Of a stretch of DNA of 64,000 nucleotides, positions 2,855-63,698 are shown piece by piece. Positions within the stretch are counted from its first letter, which is position 1, and every line of letters starts with the position of its first letter. The DNA comes from an uncultured archaeon (GTDB lineage: Archaea > Aenigmatarchaeota > Aenigmatarchaeia > QMZP01 > QMZT01). The notes below the pieces were generated by a model, which saw only the letters and a program-made list of their open reading frames with translations, was not told the origin of the DNA and did no database searches. The stretch is from assembly GCA_964441265.1 (NCBI GenBank), contig CAYYKJ010000003.1:23428-87427 (forward strand), written 5' to 3'. Position numbers and translations under genes: made by a program.

Positions 2855-3112
2855 ATTCGCCCCGCAAAGAAAATCCTATTTCTTCTTGAGTAATTTGTCA
2901 AGCTTCTTGTCTATCCGGTTCATCCTTTCCTTCATGTCATCCCACGCCTCCAGCATTATCCGTGGGGCGGCTTGGGCCGGAACCTCGCAGGGACGGGCTT
3001 CCTGTCCCTCAGAAAATGGACGATCTCCCTGTTTATCAGCCTGTAATATTTCTTCCCCTGCTTCCATTCGGATTCCACGAGGCCTATTTCCTGAAGGAGA
3101 TTCAGGTGAAAG

Positions 3113-3532
3113 TCAATCGTCTGCGGTCTCTTTCCCCGTTCTATCGTAGTATTGCAGATTTTTTATGACATTTTCGGCACAACCCCGTATGAGTTCCCTT
3201 GCTATTCTCAACCTCTTCCCGTGATCGGTGTAATGCCCCACTTGCTTTATCAAAAGATCCCCCGACAAAAGCTTTTCGCGGGGATAATAACTGCCTTCGT
3301 AATTTTCATACTTGCCAAAAAAATGTATGGGCACGCCATGCTTTGAGAGGTACGAAACGACACCAGAGGAAAAACTCAGTCGACCATGGGCATATATTGA
3401 ATATATCTTCTCTATGGGGAGGATTCTCCTTTCCATCTTCCCCTCTTCGTTGTTTCTGACAAAATAAACTGTGTTCTGCTTTCTTTTGAGTATGCCGTCC
3501 TTTGTTATGAAAAAATTGACCTTCATTTCCAT
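3113..3532 (-). pseudogene. cas1: cas1 N-terminal fragment, 139 aa, truncated before the catalytic domain
   Basis: YFVRNNEEGKMERRILPIEKIYSIYAHGRLSFSSGVVSYLSKHGVPIHFFGKYENYEGSYYP...LLIKQVGHYTDHGKRLRIARELIRGCAENVIKNL matches the Cas1 N-terminal beta-sandwich domain and the first helices. The ORF stops about 190 aa short of a full Cas1, and no cas2 follows. Confidence 0.7.
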
Positions 3533-3551: not shown

Positions 3552-4952
3552 CTAAAGCTTATCCATAGCTATTATTTCTACCCCGAACTTCTCTCCGGCT
3601 TTCCCGGGCCCATCAAAACCAGAGCACACTATTATGAATTTCTCCGAGAAGTTTAAGCTGGCATTTATTTTTGATGATTTCTCCTTAAGGGATTTGGATA
3701 TCCTTTCAATGTCCCTGTCTTTGAGGCGACCAAGTTTGGCTTCGCCAATCAGAAGCTTCCTGCCTATCCTGTCTATGCCCAGTATGTCCACCTCAGACTT
3801 CCTGTCCCACCAGCGGCCGAATATGTAGTCCTTATATTTGTCCATATGAACAAGTTCAGATATTGCTACTTCTTCAAACGCATGCCCTGCGAATGAACCG
3901 AGTTCCATTAATATCTTATTATCCACAAGGTTTTCCTGCCGGCCCTGTTCGACATATTCCAGATTTTCAAAAACAAACCTGAACCAGAATCTGAAGAAGT
4001 TGTCCTTTATGACATATATGCCATTCCTCGAGCGGGAAGCGTTTTTTTCTGTTACCGGAACCCTTCTTTCAATAATGTGTAGGTTTGACAGCGTATCCAA
4101 ATATTTGTTGACAAAAGACTTCTCAAAGCCCGTGTCGTTAACTATCTGGCCGGGCCTTGTATTTCCCTTTGATATCGAGTATAATATGGAGAAATAGTTT
4201 TTTGGCTCTTTCAGTTCCTCTCTCAGGGTGAAGAGGACGTCCTGGAAAAGGAACCTGTTTTTCATCAGTACATTCCGAAGGATATTCTCCCTTATGCCTT
4301 TGTCGAAGTTAAACTCAAGCAGGTATGCCGGCATGCCGCCGAGCACGGCGTAATTCATCACCTTTTCCCTGAAGGGCATTCTTTCCGGGAAAAAGCGGCA
4401 CGCGTCCCTGAAATTAAGCGGCTCCAGCAGCATCTGCTCAGTTCTCCTGCCATATATGGGGCTTTTATGTCCGAGGAGCCTCTCCATCATCGACATTGAC
4501 GAGCCGCACAGCACGATAAATGCATTTTTTTCCGAAAGGTTATTATCCCAATGGTCCTGAAGTATGGAAGTCACCTTCTTCGAGGACTGTACCATGTAGG
4601 GAAATTCATCGAAAACAACCGGCATCCTGGGTTTTGACGCAATATAAGCGAAAAGTGCGTCCCAACTGGAGAAGGGGCTCAGCCTGAGCACGTCATCATT
4701 GAAAAACTCCGCCACCGAGCGACTGGCGCTCCTCAGTTGTTCCCTCTCTGATTCCTGCCTGGCAAGTATGTACAGCCCTTTATGTTTTTTGAGGAATTCC
4801 TTCAAGAGTTCTGTCTTCCCGACCCTTCTTCTCCCGTAAAGTATTATGAGCTTTGGGGCACCTTTTTCATAAAGTCCGTTCAAAAGCTTCAGTTCAGATA
4901 CCCTGTTTTTGAAATTTGCGCCCTTTGCTCTGTTGGATTTAGTATACTTCAT
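3552..4952 (-). CDS. AAA+ ATPase of the archaeal-ATPase type with a C-terminal DUF234-like PD-(D/E)xK nuclease-fold domain
   Basis: Walker A motif LILYGRRRVGKTELL. The C-terminus ...SEVDILGIDRIGRKLLIGEAKLG... shows a D...EAK nuclease-like motif. It lies 40 bp downstream of cas4 and 20 bp upstream of the cas1 fragment. Confidence 0.7.
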   Translation of the reverse strand: MKYTKSNRAKGANFKNRVSELKLLNGLYEKGAPKLIILYGRRRVGKTELLKEFLKKHKGLYILARQESEREQLRSASRSVAEFFNDDVLRLSPFSSWDALFAYIASKPRMPVVFDEFPYMVQSSKKVTSILQDHWDNNLSEKNAFIVLCGSSMSMMERLLGHKSPIYGRRTEQMLLEPLNFRDACRFFPERMPFREKVMNYAVLGGMPAYLLEFNFDKGIRENILRNVLMKNRFLFQDVLFTLREELKEPKNYFSILYSISKGNTRPGQIVNDTGFEKSFVNKYLDTLSNLHIIERRVPVTEKNASRSRNGIYVIKDNFFRFWFRFVFENLEYVEQGRQENLVDNKILMELGSFAGHAFEEVAISELVHMDKYKDYIFGRWWDRKSEVDILGIDRIGRKLLIGEAKLGRLKDRDIERISKSLKEKSSKINASLNFSEKFIIVCSGFDGPGKAGEKFGVEIIAMDKL

Positions 4953-4991: not shown

Positions 4992-5543
4992 TCACTTCAC
5001 CCAGCAAAATTCAAAATAGCTGCATTTTCTACACATTTTCCTCTTTTCTGGTTCCGGTGGCTTCTCCATTGAAACTATATCACTTATATTTCTCAGGATG
5101 TCTTTTATTCTAGTTTCATTGTCCTCGGTAAGAATGATGGATTTTGTCTTCCTTAATTTGGGGTAATCTATCACCCCCTCAGCATCTACGCCTTTCTGTT
5201 TGAGATAATAAAGGTAATACAGGAGCTGGCAGACGTGGGCGTCTTCCATCTTGTTTGACTTCTTGATGTCGTGGAGCAACAGCTTGCCGCCTCTTTTCAT
5301 GAAATCTATGGATATCCTGGAATCTATCATTATTTCTTTCTTGGCGCCGGCATAGCTTGCTTCATGAATCACCCTGCCCATGGCCACGGCATCGGATTCG
5401 CGCTCCTGCCTTATGAAATGCGAGAAATACCAGAGTTTGGTGGGGCATATCACGTAATAGTTTACCTGCGTCCCTGTGAAGACACATTGCTTCGAAATCA
5501 TACGAATGGCCTCAGAACTCAAGAATCTCATCAACAAATGCAC
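4992..5543 (-). CDS. cas4: Cas4 RecB-like nuclease, apparently intact
   Basis: N-terminal FTGTQVNYYVICPTKLW, a QLLYYLYYLKQKG (QxxxY) motif, an IDF...LLHDIKK (D...DxK) motif, and a C-terminal CRKCSYFEFC cysteine cluster. All four Fe-S cluster cysteines are present. Confidence 0.8.
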   Translation of the reverse strand: MHLLMRFLSSEAIRMISKQCVFTGTQVNYYVICPTKLWYFSHFIRQERESDAVAMGRVIHEASYAGAKKEIMIDSRISIDFMKRGGKLLLHDIKKSNKMEDAHVCQLLYYLYYLKQKGVDAEGVIDYPKLRKTKSIILTEDNETRIKDILRNISDIVSMEKPPEPEKRKMCRKCSYFEFCWVK

Positions 5544-6882
5544 AGAAGACCAATGCAGGAATCAGCATTATATTGATGTTCTTGTCTTTAACTATCCTGA
5601 AATCGCTCTTTGTTATTATGAATCCACTGCTGCATCCGATCTTCCTCATCTCTTCTTTTACTTTCTTGATGTCCTTTTTTGTTACCCTTTCCCTGTATTT
5701 GACCTCGATTAACGTCGTCTTTTCGCCTTTGACCACAAAATCTATCTCACCGTTGCTTCTGAGATACGTCATCCTCTTTCCATGCTTCGAACAACTGATG
5801 AAACAGTGAACTCCCACTATGTTTTCAATGACAAACCCTTCGTTGTCTTCCTTTATCTCATAGTCCCTGAGCAATGAGTTCCTTATGCCCTGGTCCACGC
5901 ACAGGAATTTCTTTTTGGATTTCAGCTGCTCCTTAACCGTTTTGGCAAGCTTCAGTATTTCGATTATGAGATAGGATGATTTCAAATACTCTATATAATT
6001 TGTGAGTATCTCATGCTTCAGCCTTGCCGCCTCGTTTATTTTTTCATAGCTTAATATCCTTGACTGGTTTGCAATGATGAAAACGAAAATCTGCTCCAGA
6101 ATCTTTGCATTCCTTATTCTGAAAGTAGTCGTTATGTCCTCGTATATCGCCTTGTTTGAAATTGAGTTTTTCAGTATTCTGAACCAGTCCCTGAAGTCTT
6201 TCACCTCAAAGAATTCGGGAAATCCTCCTGCAAGCATGTACTGCCTGAAATCCTTTTTGTACGCATCAAGGATTTTATCAACCGAAACGGCATCTGTTTT
6301 AAAATGAGTGACCTCCGTCCCCTTAAGCTCCATGAACTGCCTGAAGGACAAGGGCCATACCTCATGCAGAATGTATCTGCCCCTCAGGTACCTGTTGGCT
6401 TCTTTTTGCAGGGTCAGGCTTGACGAACCCGAAATGAATATCTTTATGTCTTTGTGTCTGTCGTATGCAACCTTAAGCCATTTGTACCACTCACTAACAA
6501 AATGTACCTCATCGAAAAACACGTATTTTTTACCTTCTTCCGCTATATTTTCCAGCCAGTAATCAAAAATGTCCTTGATAAGGTTATCAGAATATATCTT
6601 AAGATATGGATCCTCAAGAGAATAGTACAGAATGTTCCTGGGCTTTGCTCCCTGCTTGATGAGCCTCGCCATGATGTGCTTCATCAGGACGCTCTTGCCA
6701 ACCCTCCTCGGCCCGGTAATTATGGATATCTTTTTCAGCCGGGCGTCGCTGTGAATCTCCTCGACCTCGTCCCTCTCCAGGGGGTAATCCTCCTTCTCCT
6801 CAACCTTCCCGGTAAGCCAGAACCTGTTCGCCTTCTCAAGCTCCTGCCTGAAGACCCCCCTGTCCTTTATCATATTAACCAT
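5512..6882 (-). CDS. AAA ATPase of the AAA_14/DUF4143 type with a C-terminal PD-(D/E)xK-like domain
   Basis: Walker A motif ISIITGPRRVGKSVLMKHI, Walker B motif VFFDEVH, and a C-terminal GEIDFVVKGEKTTLIEVKYRE nuclease-like motif. Its 3' end overlaps the cas4 start, which suggests an operon. Confidence 0.7.
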   Translation of the reverse strand: MVNMIKDRGVFRQELEKANRFWLTGKVEEKEDYPLERDEVEEIHSDARLKKISIITGPRRVGKSVLMKHIMARLIKQGAKPRNILYYSLEDPYLKIYSDNLIKDIFDYWLENIAEEGKKYVFFDEVHFVSEWYKWLKVAYDRHKDIKIFISGSSSLTLQKEANRYLRGRYILHEVWPLSFRQFMELKGTEVTHFKTDAVSVDKILDAYKKDFRQYMLAGGFPEFFEVKDFRDWFRILKNSISNKAIYEDITTTFRIRNAKILEQIFVFIIANQSRILSYEKINEAARLKHEILTNYIEYLKSSYLIIEILKLAKTVKEQLKSKKKFLCVDQGIRNSLLRDYEIKEDNEGFVIENIVGVHCFISCSKHGKRMTYLRSNGEIDFVVKGEKTTLIEVKYRERVTKKDIKKVKEEMRKIGCSSGFIITKSDFRIVKDKNINIMLIPALVFCAFVDEILEF

Positions 6883-6984
6883 TATAGTGGAACATATTTA
6901 TATATTTTTATGCCAGTATAGTGGGAGAAAAGAAAAAGCAACGTCGAGCTCAAGACTTATAACTTTTGGTGATTTTTTAAGAAA

Positions 6985-7066
6985 GCCTGACCGGGCATAC
7001 AATGTAATGATTTACATGGGTTCCTGTGAAGAGATATTCCTTCGCCAGTAGGTCTTGCATAATACC
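6985..7066 (-). pseudogene. cas4: Remnant of a second cas4 gene (N-terminal 27 codons, then a stop)
   Basis: The minus strand translates to MQDLLAKEYLFTGTHVNHYIVCPVRLS*. Compare the intact Cas4 KQCVFTGTQVNYYVICPTKLW. DNA identity with the 5457..5489 region is about 75%. Confidence 0.5.
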
Positions 7067-7288
7067 TCACACAAGCAATAAAAATAACCAGGCAGGAACA
7101 AACATAATCCTTTTTTGTTTAACTCTTTTTTCTTCCAACCTTTCCCGCGTTCATAACGTATTTTATTTGTATTATGGCACAAGTAACCTTTAAGTCTACT
7201 TGTAGAATCATATAAGTAAATTTTGGCGAGTTTTTGGCACGGCTGTTAGGAAAGCGGGTTTAAGACGGGATCTGATTCGGGTTTTGGG

Positions 7289-8506
7289 TTAGATGATGTT
7301 ATTTCCAAATTGATTTATTTCCTCTTTGTCTATATCTTTTATAACATCGATTCCCTTTTCTCTTATACTGTCCATGGTTTCTTTTTTCTGCTTTTTCATG
7401 ACAAAAAATCCTTTGAATTCATGGGAGACTAATCCCCACTTAAGCCAGGGCTTTGCCAGATAAAATTCTGGCAAATTCACTGAATATTCATACAGTATTT
7501 TCTTTAATTTCCATCTTAGGTTTTTTCTTTCTTGATTATTCTCACTTATTTCGATTCCATCTTTTTGTAACTTGTCTAGTATCTCATTCCAAGAAATATT
7601 ATTATTTTCTCTATCATTAATTATTTTAGCAAATGTTTTTCTCAATTTCACATCATCCTCCTCTTTTTCATTTTCTTCTTGCTCTTCAATCTCCATCAAT
7701 TGAGGAATAACCATTTGCATTCCACCAAGTCTTCTGAAAATTCTTTGGGCGTCACTTCTTTTTTCAGCTGTAAGGTACTTTAAATAATCTAGATTTTTCT
7801 TTATCTCTAGTATGTATTTTGAAGTTAGCGAATTTCCATCCTCCTCCTTTCCAAAAACATCATCGATCAGCTCTCTTTCTTTTTCATAATTGAGCGGTTG
7901 ATTCTCAAATTTCTTTAGAATTTTCACAGTGGATTCCATTACTTCTTCATCATAAATTGCCTTGCTTCCCCTGTCTTTACTGAAATTTGAAAAGACAATT
8001 ATGTTTGGTTCAACGACTTTATTTTCCTTATTCCTATTTATTCTCCCCCATCTCTGAATTTGGCTATCAATAGGGGAAACCTCCGTGATCATAAAATCGA
8101 AGTCTACATCTACAGATGCCTCAACCATCTGAGTAGATACCAAGATTACTTTTTTGCCTTCATCCAACCTCTCTTTAATTTTCTCTATTCTTTTACCTTT
8201 TACTTTCTCTGTTAGCCGTGAATTTAGCAAGAAAAAGCCGTCTTCTTCATTTTTTCCAAATTTTTCATAAAGTTCTATTGATTTTTTTACATTGTTTACT
8301 ATTATCATGGTACTGACTTCGTTTTCTTTAAAATCCTTCACCGGGAATATATTGGAAAAGCAGAAGTATTTGTATGTCCTTTTGTCGTGAAGCTCATCAT
8401 AGGCACTGCCCTTCAATAATTTATAGAAAAAACCCTGCAATTTTTTATAATACAACATATCATAAACACAATCCTTCTCAACATTGAAATTCAGGAGAAT
8501 TCTCAT
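7289..8506 (-). pseudogene. cas3: In-frame fusion of a Cas6 N-terminus (about 58 aa) to the Cas3 helicase C-terminal half. This is a remnant of a type I-B-like cas operon.
   Basis: The N-terminus MRILLNFNVEKDCVYDMLYYKKLQGFFYKLLKGSAYDELHDKRTYKYFCFSNIFP looks like a Cas6 N-terminus with the F-x-F-S motif. It is followed by MIIVNNVKKSIELYEKFG...FFLLNSRLTEKVKGKRIEKIKERLDEGKKVILVSTQMVEASVDVDFDFMITEVSPIDSQIQRWGRINR, which matches Cas3 helicase motifs IV to VI plus the Cas3 C-terminal domain. The HD domain, Walker A and DEAH motifs are absent. Confidence 0.65.
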
Positions 8507-8619: not shown

Positions 8620-9918
8620 CTATCCCTTCAGCCTCTTCATCAGTTCCCCGGCCGGGAGCATCTCTTCCCTTCCCGACTTCATGTCCCTGAGCTTGACCTT
8701 GTTTTTCTTCAGCTCCTTCTCCCCCAGAAGGATCACGTAAGGGATTCCCAGGGAATTGGCGTAGCTCAGGTTCTTTGATATTCCCCTTCCCATCAGGTCG
8801 ATTTCGCAGGGTATGCCGCCCTCCCTGATCTTCCCGGCAACCGGAAGGGCCTTTTCGAACGTGTCACCGATAGGGATCACCAGAACCCTGCTGACGGTCC
8901 TACCTTCCCCGGCCCTCTTCTCCAGCTTGAGGGCCTCGAATATGGGCTCTATCCCGAAGGAGACGCCCGTTGCCGGGAAATCTCCCTTACCCAGGTACAT
9001 TCCGATCATCCTGTCGTATCTCCCCCCGCCGGCGAGGGACGAGGTGATCCTGGACTTCCTGAGATAGACCTCGAAGACGGGCCCCGTATAATACTCCAGC
9101 CCTCTCGCCAGGGAGACGTCCAGCTCTATGTTATCTATCCCCATTTTCTTACAGTATCCGAGCAGCTCCTCCAGCTCCCCGATGCCCTCCTTTCCTTCAC
9201 CGCTTTTGACGTATTTCTTTATCTTTGAAAGTATCTCGGAGTTCTTCCCTTTGATCTTCAGAATTTCGAAGACCTTGTCCACCTCTTCCTTCTCAAACCC
9301 CAGCGTCAGTAGCTCCTCGCGTACCCCCATCGTGCCTATCTTCGATAGCTTGTCCACGGCCAGTATGGCCTTCATCTTGTACTCCCCGAACCCGGCGTAA
9401 TCCATTATGCCGTTCAATAACTTTCGGGAGTTGACCTTTATCACGAAATCGAACCCAAGCTCCCTGAATGCAGTATCTACCACCGAAAGTATCTCGGCAT
9501 CCGCGACCATGGACCTTACCCCGACCACGTCGACGTCGCACTGGAGAAACTCCCTGTATCTGCCCAGCTTTATGGGCCCGTCCCTCCAGACCGGCTGTAT
9601 CTGGTAGCGGCGGAATGGCTTGGGGAGGTTGGGATTCATGCCCACCACCTTGCACATGGGGACGGTGAGATCATAACGGAGCCCGAGCTTCCTGTCGCCC
9701 TGGTCACTGAAGCTGAATATCTCCTTCATTATCTCCTCCCCGCCGGCGAACTTGGCCGCCAGAACGTCCATGCGCTCGACCGCAGGGGTCTCCAGCGGGG
9801 AATAGCCGTAGGTCTCGAATATCCTCCGGAGCGTATCCACTATCATTTTCCTGGGGATCTCCTCCTCCGGGAGGAAGTCCCTCACTCCCTTCGCGTTCAT
9901 CAGCCTGACATCTGCCAT
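8620..9918 (-). CDS. hisS: Histidyl-tRNA synthetase
   Basis: 432 aa class II aaRS with HisRS-type motifs (FRRYQIQPVWR, GGGRYD) and a C-terminal anticodon-binding domain. Confidence 0.85.
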   Translation of the reverse strand: MADVRLMNAKGVRDFLPEEEIPRKMIVDTLRRIFETYGYSPLETPAVERMDVLAAKFAGGEEIMKEIFSFSDQGDRKLGLRYDLTVPMCKVVGMNPNLPKPFRRYQIQPVWRDGPIKLGRYREFLQCDVDVVGVRSMVADAEILSVVDTAFRELGFDFVIKVNSRKLLNGIMDYAGFGEYKMKAILAVDKLSKIGTMGVREELLTLGFEKEEVDKVFEILKIKGKNSEILSKIKKYVKSGEGKEGIGELEELLGYCKKMGIDNIELDVSLARGLEYYTGPVFEVYLRKSRITSSLAGGGRYDRMIGMYLGKGDFPATGVSFGIEPIFEALKLEKRAGEGRTVSRVLVIPIGDTFEKALPVAGKIREGGIPCEIDLMGRGISKNLSYANSLGIPYVILLGEKELKKNKVKLRDMKSGREEMLPAGELMKRLKG

Positions 9919-56828: not shown

Positions 56829-56940
56829 TCCCTTTTGGTCCCACGCTTTTGTCGGGAAAAGGAAAAGCGTGGAGTGGAAGCGGTCAGCTCCCTTTTGGTC
56901 CCACGCTTTTGTCGGGAAAAGGAAAAGCGTGGAGTGGAAG
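56829..56940. repeat. Two identical tandem copies of a 52-bp unit (period 60 bp, 8-bp spacer). Each unit contains a 10-bp-stem hairpin.
   Basis: tcccttttggtcccacgcttttgtcgggaaaaggaaaagcgtggagtggaag occurs twice. The internal palindrome is CCACGCTTTT/AAAAGCGTGG. Confidence 0.6.
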
Positions 56941-62075: not shown

Positions 62076-63557
62076 CTATCTGAGGAACTCGGCCAGTAGG
62101 CGCACACCGAAGCCGGTCGCGTTCTTGGGCTGATAGCTCCTCTGTTTCTCATACCATGCGGTCCCGGCTATGTCCAGGTGAACCCACTTCTTTGATTTTA
62201 TGAACTTCTTCAGGAACATTCCGGCGGTTATCATCCCCCCGTATCTGCCCCTCTTGTAGCCGAGGTTCTTGACATCGGCTATTTCCCCCTTCATCTCGTC
62301 CGAATATTCCTTGTAAGAGGGCATCCTCCATACCCTCTCGTAGGTCTCCTCTCCTGCCTTGGACATTTTCTCCGCGATTCCGTCGTCATTTGATAGCATC
62401 CCGGCAGCATATTCCCCGAAGGAAACCATGCAGGATCCGGTCAGCGTGGCCATGTCTATTATGGTATCCGCCTTCATGTCTTTCTCCGCATAGGCCATTG
62501 CATCCGCGAGTATGAGCCTCCCTTCCGCATCGGTATCGACTATCTGGACCGTTTTCCCCGAATAGGACTTGATCACGCTGCCCTGCTTGAACGACTTGGG
62601 CCCCACCATGTTCTCCGCCAGGGGCATCAGGCCTATCACGTTCTTCCTGATCTTCAGATCGGCTACGGTCTTCATTATGCCGAGTACTGTGATAGCTCCG
62701 GCCTTGTCCATGCGCATGTTCTCCATGTAGGGAGACGGCTTTATGTCCAGGCCGCCGGAATCGAAGGTGACCCCCTTGCCGACCAGAGCTGTCTTCTTTT
62801 TAGTCTTTGATCCGGTGTACTCAAGGACCACCAGCTTGGTCCCGTATCTGGAGCCCTTGCCGACCGCAAGCAGAAGGTTCATACCCTTTTTTCTCAGTTT
62901 TTTCTCGTCGAGTATGCTTATCCTGAGCTTTGTCTTCCCGGCCAGTCCTTCCGCTATCCTGGCTATCCTGTCCGGGTTCATGACGTCGCTGCCCTCGTTC
63001 ACCATGTCCCTGACCCAGTTCGTGTTCTCGCATGTTACCTTGGCGTCACGAGCGGCCTTCTTGACCCTCTCTATGTCCGGAAAGTTGTAGTATATTGTGA
63101 ACTCCTTGATATCTTTCTTTTTCTTCTTCTCCTCCTTCTTGTATTTGTCGAAGGAGTAATCTCCCAGGATTATTCCCTCCACAATCGCGGTTACTGCGCT
63201 CTTCTTCTGTATCTTACCGGACTTCTCGAAGAATACGGAAAAACCGTTCAGCTTGAGGGATTTTGCGACTCCCAAGGCAAGACAGGAGATTTTGCGTATG
63301 ACTTCCGGATCGAGCTTCTTTTCCTTTCCCAGCCCGATCAGAAGTATCCTCTTCTTACCGCCGACGTTTCTGAGAAGCGCGGTTTTCCCCTCCTCCCCGG
63401 TGAAGTCCTTTGAATTGACCAGATCGGAAATCTCCTTGTACTGGTGGCTCTTGTCCTTCATCTTCTTCACCTCTTCCTCGGTGAAGAAGAGAGCAAGCAT
63501 GCCGGATCTTATTCTGGAAAGACTCTGTTTCTCTATGAACATCCTCATGGAAATCAC
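62076..63557 (-). CDS. pepA: Leucyl aminopeptidase (M17 family)
   Basis: NTDAEGRL and VGKGVTFDSGG motifs. Confidence 0.85.
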   Translation of the reverse strand: MISMRMFIEKQSLSRIRSGMLALFFTEEEVKKMKDKSHQYKEISDLVNSKDFTGEEGKTALLRNVGGKKRILLIGLGKEKKLDPEVIRKISCLALGVAKSLKLNGFSVFFEKSGKIQKKSAVTAIVEGIILGDYSFDKYKKEEKKKKKDIKEFTIYYNFPDIERVKKAARDAKVTCENTNWVRDMVNEGSDVMNPDRIARIAEGLAGKTKLRISILDEKKLRKKGMNLLLAVGKGSRYGTKLVVLEYTGSKTKKKTALVGKGVTFDSGGLDIKPSPYMENMRMDKAGAITVLGIMKTVADLKIRKNVIGLMPLAENMVGPKSFKQGSVIKSYSGKTVQIVDTDAEGRLILADAMAYAEKDMKADTIIDMATLTGSCMVSFGEYAAGMLSNDDGIAEKMSKAGEETYERVWRMPSYKEYSDEMKGEIADVKNLGYKRGRYGGMITAGMFLKKFIKSKKWVHLDIAGTAWYEKQRSYQPKNATGFGVRLLAEFLR

Positions 63558-63698
63558 ACGTTATTTCGGAAGACGGCTTTGTCCAATCGGTTCAATCCGC
63601 CACCTGCTATTTCGGAAGACGGCTTAATGCACCCGGTTCAGGCCGTCATGCGCTACGTTATATTATAATATTCTTTTTGGAATATTAATGTTCCTGCA

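Follow-up and report, generated by a model that had tools for sequence, protein, structure and literature searches.

Degenerate or orphaned CRISPR-Cas loci and solo cas4 genes are established from comparative genomics of Cas4, and Campbell-type or site-specific integration is known to displace the ends of genes, as elements targeting tRNA genes do. We compare here with these systems a locus in a 64,000-nt stretch of DNA from an uncultured archaeon of the Aenigmatarchaeota (hereafter the window). Like other degenerate loci, it has an intact cas4 without complete cas1, cas2 and array, placed beside other defence candidates in a defence-island-like setting. It differs in that this cas4 lies between two intact ATPase genes with operon-like spacing (10 nt and 39 nt), and in that what appears to be the relic of an earlier ATPase-cas4 pair precedes it. 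This relic, a 5' stub of a second cas4, is probably the non-functional remains of a second, distinct ATPase-cas4 pair that once followed cas3 in a type I-B locus. In the literature searched, neither cas4 stubs nor ATPases placed at the cas3/cas4 boundary are described.

Judged from its sequence, the locus is a dead CRISPR-Cas system in which only a solo cas4 and two defence-candidate ATPases are intact, since it carries a cas6'::'cas3 fusion and stubs of cas4 and cas1, and has no cas2, cas5, cas7, cas8 or array. Beside hisS (8620-9918, minus strand) lies a chimeric ORF of 405 aa (7289..8506, minus strand) that joins in frame the N-terminus of Cas6 (~69 residues) and the C-terminus of Cas3' (~340 residues). 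Cas6 proteins match its residues 1-69 at 58% identity, Cas3 matches start at residue 67, and the junction falls on a shared 'xII' microhomology (residues 67-69); the ORF matches Pfam Cas3-like_C_2 at 6.6e-26 and positions 220-357 of TIGR01587 (cas3_core). For the fusion to form, the remainder of cas6, the genes cas8, cas7 and cas5, and most of cas3 would have been cleanly deleted. The 405 codons remain open in AT-rich DNA. Complete copies of cas3 and cas6, and cas8b, cas7 and cas5, are absent from the locus, where only this fusion stands for them; cas2 and a complete cas1 are absent as well, cas1 ending at codon 139. Searches of the 64 kb by tblastn with the ORFs of six related loci found no other cas genes, and TRF, a repeat finder and a search for the I-B repeat pattern found no CRISPR array. 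Among other repeats in the window are two perfect 52-nt copies at 56829-56940 (60 nt spacing; TCCCTTTTGGTCCCACGCTTTTGTCGGGAAAAGG...), each containing an inverted repeat, and a tandem 46-nt repeat at 63555-63646 (two copies, 76% identity).

The intact cas4 (4992..5501, minus strand; 169 aa) matches Pfam Cas_Cas4 at 7.8e-60 over positions 1-159 of 160, TIGR00372, and PADLOC Cas4b at 3.3e-60, and it keeps 12/12 invariant columns (Y15, C19, W24, G42, D66, K80, Q92, Y96, C157, C160, Y162 and C166). It starts 10 nt past the stop of the first intact ATPase gene, ATPase1. ATPase2 (3552..4952, minus strand), an intact COG1672-type gene with ATPase_2 and DUF234 domains (Pfam 1e-27 and 1.1e-17), sits exactly between cas4 and cas1, matches the PADLOC defence candidate PDC-S27 (8.6e-44) and is preceded by a 39-nt region with a TTTAAATA box of its own. 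The cas1 gene is a 5' stub of 139 codons (3113..3532, minus strand) of the type I-B Cas1 (Pfam Cas_Cas1 positions 2-125 of 283; TIGR03641 at 8.1e-43), joined to unrelated higher-GC sequence, with Cas1 homology stopping at ~3116-3146. Right after its stop, positions 2882-3112 (minus strand) are of higher GC, read ...LQEIGLVESEWKQGKKYYRLINREIVHFL... and resemble the 3' part of a winged-helix regulator with no Pfam match; the cas island probably has its right edge here.

An earlier note on this DNA had placed a Cas4 N-terminus followed by a stop on the minus strand at 6985..7066. Such an N-terminus is there, in the strand and frame proposed; the coordinates were about 6 nt off, with two upstream codons (GI) added and the last two missed. 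The stub occupies 6977..7060 of the minus strand, with its ATG at 7060-7058, sense codons down to 6980 and a TAA at 6979-6977, and its 27 codons encode MQDLLAKEYLFTGTHVNHYIVCPVRLS before the stop. An in-frame TGA lies three codons 5' of the ATG, and a Shine-Dalgarno-like GTGAGGT stands directly 5' of it. Stub and intact cas4 share a 52-nt direct repeat (repeat family D2, no strand assigned), whose upstream copy at 6993..7044 lies inside the stub and whose downstream copy at 5443..5494 lies inside the 5' end of the intact gene, with 79% DNA identity and a spacing of 1550 nt. The DNA identity of about 75% previously claimed for 5457..5489 holds, since these positions match 7007-7039 in 25/33 nt (76%).

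At the protein level, the stub shares 11/23 identities with the resident Cas4 (BLASTP, 36 bits). Against a Cas4 profile built from 122 database representatives, with the window's own Cas4 left out, it is the second-best match among the 2064 six-frame segments of the whole window (E = 0.018, aligned to profile positions 5-25), behind the intact cas4 only, and the Cas4 of an unrelated locus, L040, matches it at E = 8.6e-6 (tblastn). The local DNA alignment of stub and cas4 scores 49, a value that 0/1000 dinucleotide shuffles reach (mean 19.3, sd 2.2, maximum 29), so the similarity lies far above chance. It could still be thought that the resemblance to cas4 is fortuitous, or that the gap holds a small ORF or an RNA with a function that has nothing to do with cas4. 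At 27 aa the peptide is short, it has no Pfam or NCBIfam match at E <= 0.1, and it shares three 5-mers with none of the database proteins searched. Set against this are the profile rank and the shuffle result, the fitting strand, frame and position, and an ATPase tail in front of the stub as in the intact pair; moreover, the gap holds no Rfam family (best E = 0.33, 20 bits against a gathering score of 100), and the ORFs that overlap in it have no Pfam match. Non-coding RNAs and other ORFs in the gap find no support in these Rfam and Pfam searches, and the idea as a whole is extremely improbable and effectively refuted by profile, tblastn, shuffle test and ATPase tail.

The stub is thus confirmed, as far as sequence can tell, as the real but decayed 5' start of a second cas4, an ordinary gene relic without function. 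It shares with the Cas4 family (PF01930/TIGR00372; PADLOC Cas4b, the type I-B form) the N-terminal motif xTGTxVNYYxxCxxKLW including the first Fe-S cluster cysteine, its own ribosome-binding site and ATG, and the orientation of the cas operon. It differs in keeping only 27 of ~170 codons: the ORF ends before the RecB-like nuclease core (D...ExK, QxxxY) and the three C-terminal cysteines, and no frame of 6883-6976 holds further Cas4 similarity. Among the positions it does keep, Y15, C19 and W24 do not vary across 30 aligned Cas4 proteins, and the stub has His, Cys and Ser there. Because the invariant Tyr and Trp are replaced and a stop follows, we regard the stub as a dead pseudogene fragment and not as a functional member of the family.

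The 228-nt interval between the cas3 remnant and the stub harbours the 3' remnant of a second AAA_14/DUF4143 (COG1373-type) ATPase gene (7067..7162, minus strand), which reads NTL, an internal stop, then TRERLEEKRVKQKRIMFVPAWLFLLLV and the terminal stop. A COG1373-type profile made from 110 ATPase1 homologues and seven cas4-adjacent members matches a 27-aa segment at 7070-7150, with E = 4.1e-5 in a six-frame search of the window and 1.4e-7 in the gap alone. The alignment falls at the very C-terminal end of the family (profile positions 423-452 of 455, '...kkilfiPawlflll') and is followed by the stop. What is left is the last ~30 codons; the AAA_14 P-loop and the DUF4143 domain are absent, and the profile aligns to none of the other frames of 7061-7300. 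The remnant is not a copy of ATPase1, because its tail fits the family consensus whereas that of ATPase1 is longer and only ~29% identical to it (our own count). It ends 6 nt before the stub ATG, its TGA overlapping the GAGG of the stub's ribosome-binding site. The intact pair has the same layout, with an ATPase1 stop TGA-GG, 10 nt and then the cas4 ATG. The lost unit would therefore have been an ATPase-cas4 pair like the intact one downstream. For the earlier note this means that cas4 does follow the cas3 remnant downstream on the same strand, as it had stated, but not directly, since the ATPase remnant intervenes, and that the label of first ATPase does not belong to ATPase1, as the last ~30 codons of an earlier one precede the stub.

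ATPase1 (5512..6882, minus strand; start called at 6873 by the gene caller) has intact AAA_14 and DUF4143 domains (Pfam 2.7e-35 and 5e-23) and matches the PADLOC defence candidate PDC-S01 (4.2e-75); a PDB sequence search gave no match. Its promoter-like leader (6883..6925, minus strand) reads CCACTATAC..AAAAATATATAAATAT..CCACTATA, with a TATA-box-like core and a direct repeat on both sides, and has 76-88% DNA identity to the upstream regions of the orthologues in L086, L087, L088 and L089. Homology to all four of these loci begins at 6925/6924, 42 nt 5' of the ATPase1 start codon, and homology to L086, the closest orthologue, stops at the ATPase1 stop codon (~5519). The closest orthologues (81%, 67% and 67% identity) all lie in non-cas contexts, with radical SAM, TrkH, CobS, diphthamide synthase and an integrase as neighbours and no cas genes nearby. 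Sharp homology edges, from 6925 to ~5519, are therefore found around ATPase1, where the earlier note had proposed a search for insertion boundaries, and these data support the view that ATPase1 is a self-contained unit, as read from such comparisons. The 51-nt spacer between the stub stop and this unit (6926..6976, minus strand) has no similarity to any fetched locus.

The ~42-nt arrangement of CCACTATA, TATA-like core AAAAATATATAAATAT and CCACTATA is conserved 5' of AAA_14/DUF4143 ATPase genes (window 6883-6925, minus strand; L086 1361-1402; L087 2220-2262; L088 485-526; L032 2013-2038), and a similar core precedes distant ATPases, only ~28% identical, in L032, L027 and L037. It may be a shared promoter or operator. 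The C-terminal region of ATPase1 (5515-6897, minus strand) also gives a weak match to the Cas4 profile (E = 0.24) and weak Pfam matches to Mrr_cat and REase-ARP, which would be consistent with a PD-(D/E)xK-like fold in DUF4143. ATPase1 and ATPase2 resemble PDC-S01 (AAA_14 + DUF4143) and PDC-S27 (ATPase_2 + DUF234) in their strong model matches and in having a promoter-like TATA region each; the ATPase1 orthologues are likewise single genes in unrelated neighbourhoods. What sets the two apart is their placement exactly at the cas3/cas4 and cas4/cas1 boundaries in cas orientation, a placement that recurs in L003, L035, L078 and L084 and of which the literature searches gave no description.

Stub and intact cas4 begin differently. 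The stub starts MQDLLAKE (type MQxLLxKE), a type also found in L013 (MQLLNKE), L040 (MDLLNKD), L044 and L039, while the intact gene starts MISKQ, a type seen for instance in L009 (MLSKT). These differing N-termini argue that two distinct cas4 lineages were juxtaposed and that the gene was not duplicated in place; we infer that an origin from different lineages is to be favoured, even if the clade placement of the stub, on 22-27 codons, is weak. With L013 the stub shares 61.5% identity over 26 aa, with the resident Cas4 48%. Among the fetched loci, L040 has the closest full-length match to the Cas3 piece of the window (44.8%; short partial alignments reach 48%), and the Cas1 proteins of L040 (72.6%) and L013 are among the best matches to the Cas1 piece. 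The closest Cas3 overall is that of P0002/L005 (46%), whose contig ends soon after cas3, and a search of genome contigs with the Cas3 piece found only loci at 34-43% identity. All proteins of the window are singletons at 90% identity, the nearest relatives of every cas piece are distant (45-73%), and no 'before' state of the locus was found in these searches.

At the nucleotide level the picture is a different one, and here the comparison of N-termini suggested by the earlier note cuts both ways: the native types differ, but the resident cas4 is the stub's nearest relative, ranking 1 of 81 cas4 genes (69.7% over 66 nt). Their pS of 0.48 lies below that of 98% of 3240 independent cas4 pairs (null 0.88 +/- 0.18) and below 97.3% of GC-matched pairs. 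Such a low value counts against two lineages in that it also fits an old duplication in place; it is equally explained by shared codon usage in one genome or by recombination between fairly close lineages. In a duplication of this kind, the ATPase1 unit would have entered the only resident cas4 at its 5' end, with the older ATPase already upstream, and doubled the conserved ~65-nt block like a long target-site duplication, and the upstream copy would have drifted to 70-79% identity. The direct repeats, which lie 1550 nt apart on both sides of the ATPase1 unit, agree with this, as does the pN/pS of 0.53 (pN 0.25), expected with one drifting copy. The N-termini upstream of the block, however, differ in type and length, which would take a 9-nt indel and many changes, and a divergence of 20-30% implies a long time, yet the cas6::cas3 ORF is still open. 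We consider a duplication in place unlikely, and the comparison with other loci bears on it further.

In a sample of 80 cas4 loci from a metagenome search, a cas4 5' stub lies upstream of an intact cas4 in three independent loci. In L032 stub and intact gene match over 94 nt at 91% (pS 0.22, pN 0.04), the break follows KLWLF, and the cargo is an AAA_14/DUF4143 ATPase on the opposite strand. In L084 they match over 51 nt at 94% (pS 0.31, pN 0.02), the break again follows KLWLF, and the cargo is a 3' fragment of a Fic-like_C gene. In L042 the match extends over 254 nt at 80% (pS 0.62, pN 0.03 over 59 codons), with a break at codon ~75 and a DUF6036 nucleotidyltransferase as cargo. The stub directly follows a COG1672-type ATPase in L032 and L084, and arrays are retained in L084 and L042. 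A search of viral contigs for Cas4 relatives gave 2 loci, which were uninformative. As the differences in these three loci are mostly synonymous, their stubs derive from diverged, once-functional cas4 genes, which speaks against duplication in place; the higher pN of the window stub is explained by its further decay. L032 is moreover a mosaic, with 7/7 mismatches in the first 39 of the 94 nt and the last 55 nt identical, which is not uniform drift. The repeat in L084, on the other hand, is just the 51-nt block around a 517-nt insert, as a duplication would leave it.

The window, L032 and L084, three independent cases with a different cargo each, share a break at codon ~25-29, and this clustering right after the conserved block is suggestive. 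It could mean that recombination prefers the conserved block at the 5' end of cas4, where small units of a defence gene and a cas4 5' end enter, a single crossover per event leaving a stub that ends right after KLW(LF). The repeat of L032, identical over 55 nt beside the break and only 82% identical upstream, fits such an exchange, as do the live arrays of L084 and L042 and the frequency of ATPases near cas4 given below. None of the four inserts, however, has a recombinase gene; the L084 cargo begins in the middle of the truncated Fic-like_C gene and looks like an illegitimate junction, the L042 break lies much further in, and the ATPase1 orthologues elsewhere lack the cas4 block. Past the block the window, L032 and L084 share no clear homology, with only a ~10-nt resemblance between L032 and L084. 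The clustering itself may be an ascertainment effect, since stubs below block length are undetectable and long ones may be selected against, and has p ~0.15 under a 5'-biased distribution in a rough estimate. Taken together, we hold a preferred site of this kind to be quite improbable.

The direct repeats of a gene end around an insert, with one copy on the gene and the other a stub, recall Campbell-type or site-specific integration. The difference is that no integrase is present here, that the repeats are 51, 52, 94 and 254 nt long, and that one cargo starts inside a truncated gene; with no recombinase, repeat lengths of 51-254 nt and non-homologous sequences past the block, a site-specific mobile element at cas4 is not indicated by the four cases. 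Off-target integration by Cas1-Cas2 was considered as well and rejected, the 30-nt repeats of comparator loci being unlike the block and the duplicated lengths ranging from 51 to 254 nt.

On the reading that we prefer, a relic of a second ATPase-cas4 pair, a piece of ~185 nt would have survived across the gene boundary of the old pair, comprising the last ~30 ATPase codons, 6 nt and cas4 codons 1-27. Just past the conserved TGTxVNYYxxCxxKLW block, an illegitimate junction would have joined this piece, through the 51-nt spacer, to another unit made up of the ATPase1 promoter and then ATPase1-cas4-ATPase2-cas1. The stub would afterwards have drifted neutrally, losing the invariant Tyr and Trp and gaining its stop. 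The identities of the parts, the homology boundaries and the decay of the stub are read directly from the sequence, while the order of events is our reconstruction. The junction may have arisen either by foreign DNA replacing the resident adaptation genes or by a deletion that fused two modules lying side by side. A replacement or insertion rather than simple decay, as the earlier note had it, is therefore not established, because at least three more deletion junctions lie in the locus (the cas6::cas3 microhomology, the older ATPase that lost its 5' part, and the truncated cas1) and a deletion between adjacent modules fits too. Its picture of a divergent intact cas4 behind an inserted ATPase stands in so far as this cas4 is divergent and the self-contained ATPase1 lies in between, but the unit that was destroyed was an ATPase-cas4 pair.

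Base composition was also considered as a sign of mosaicism. GC3 rises from 0.32 in cas3C to 0.57 in cas4 (+0.25), and in 30 comparator loci the difference between cas4 and cas3 has the same direction (mean +0.14, sd 0.13, up to +0.45); the jump is ordinary by this measure and was rejected as evidence. Within a locus, cas4 and cas1 usually have a higher third-position GC than the cas3 3' region, a contrast that may reflect frequent exchange of the adaptation module or different constraints.

ATPases of these types are common neighbours of cas4. With two profiles, a COG1373- or COG1672-type gene was found near cas4 in at least 18/80 loci, about a fifth of those sampled, and in L003 too; these genes are mostly in cas orientation. 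The ATPase lies within ~1.2 kb upstream of cas4 in 17/18 loci, usually adjacent, and downstream in L009. ATPases or their remnants upstream of cas4 occur in L003, L006, L011, L012, L016, L023, L027/L032, L035, L037, L046, L049, L056, L065/L066, L074, L078 and L084, those of L006 and L012 being remnants. As in the window, a second ATPase sits exactly between cas4 and cas1 in L035. Toxin-antitoxin-like genes also occur between cas3 and cas4 (L035 4542-6022; L005 11956-12090; L042 2326-3143; L010 5465-5893), the kinds seen being AbiEi/AbiEii, a DUF6036 nucleotidyltransferase with a zinc-ribbon ORF, and a minimal nucleotidyltransferase; AbiE-type genes follow cas3 in L035 and L005.

A broader proposal, which we regard as rather unlikely, is that the cas4 5' end in this type I-B-like clade is a recurrent entry point for single-gene defence candidates that become tightly coupled ATPase-cas4 pairs, with successive arrivals recombining at TGTxVNYYxxCxxKLW and leaving stubs behind; the PDC-S01 and PDC-S27 ATPases and the AbiE-like and DUF6036 nucleotidyltransferases may be among these candidates. 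By itself the stub is a small pseudogene that matters only as a marker of the rebuilding of the locus, and the recurrent ATPase-cas4 pairing, together with the recurring stubs, is the more interesting lead. The pattern suggests either a functional link of defence-candidate ATPases to the adaptation genes or a cas3/cas4 boundary at which defence genes land preferentially. Should the coupling be functional, the ATPases would act as hitherto unrecognised accessories when Cas4 takes part in spacer acquisition. Either reading, if true, would add something testable to the picture of how parts move between CRISPR loci and defence islands.
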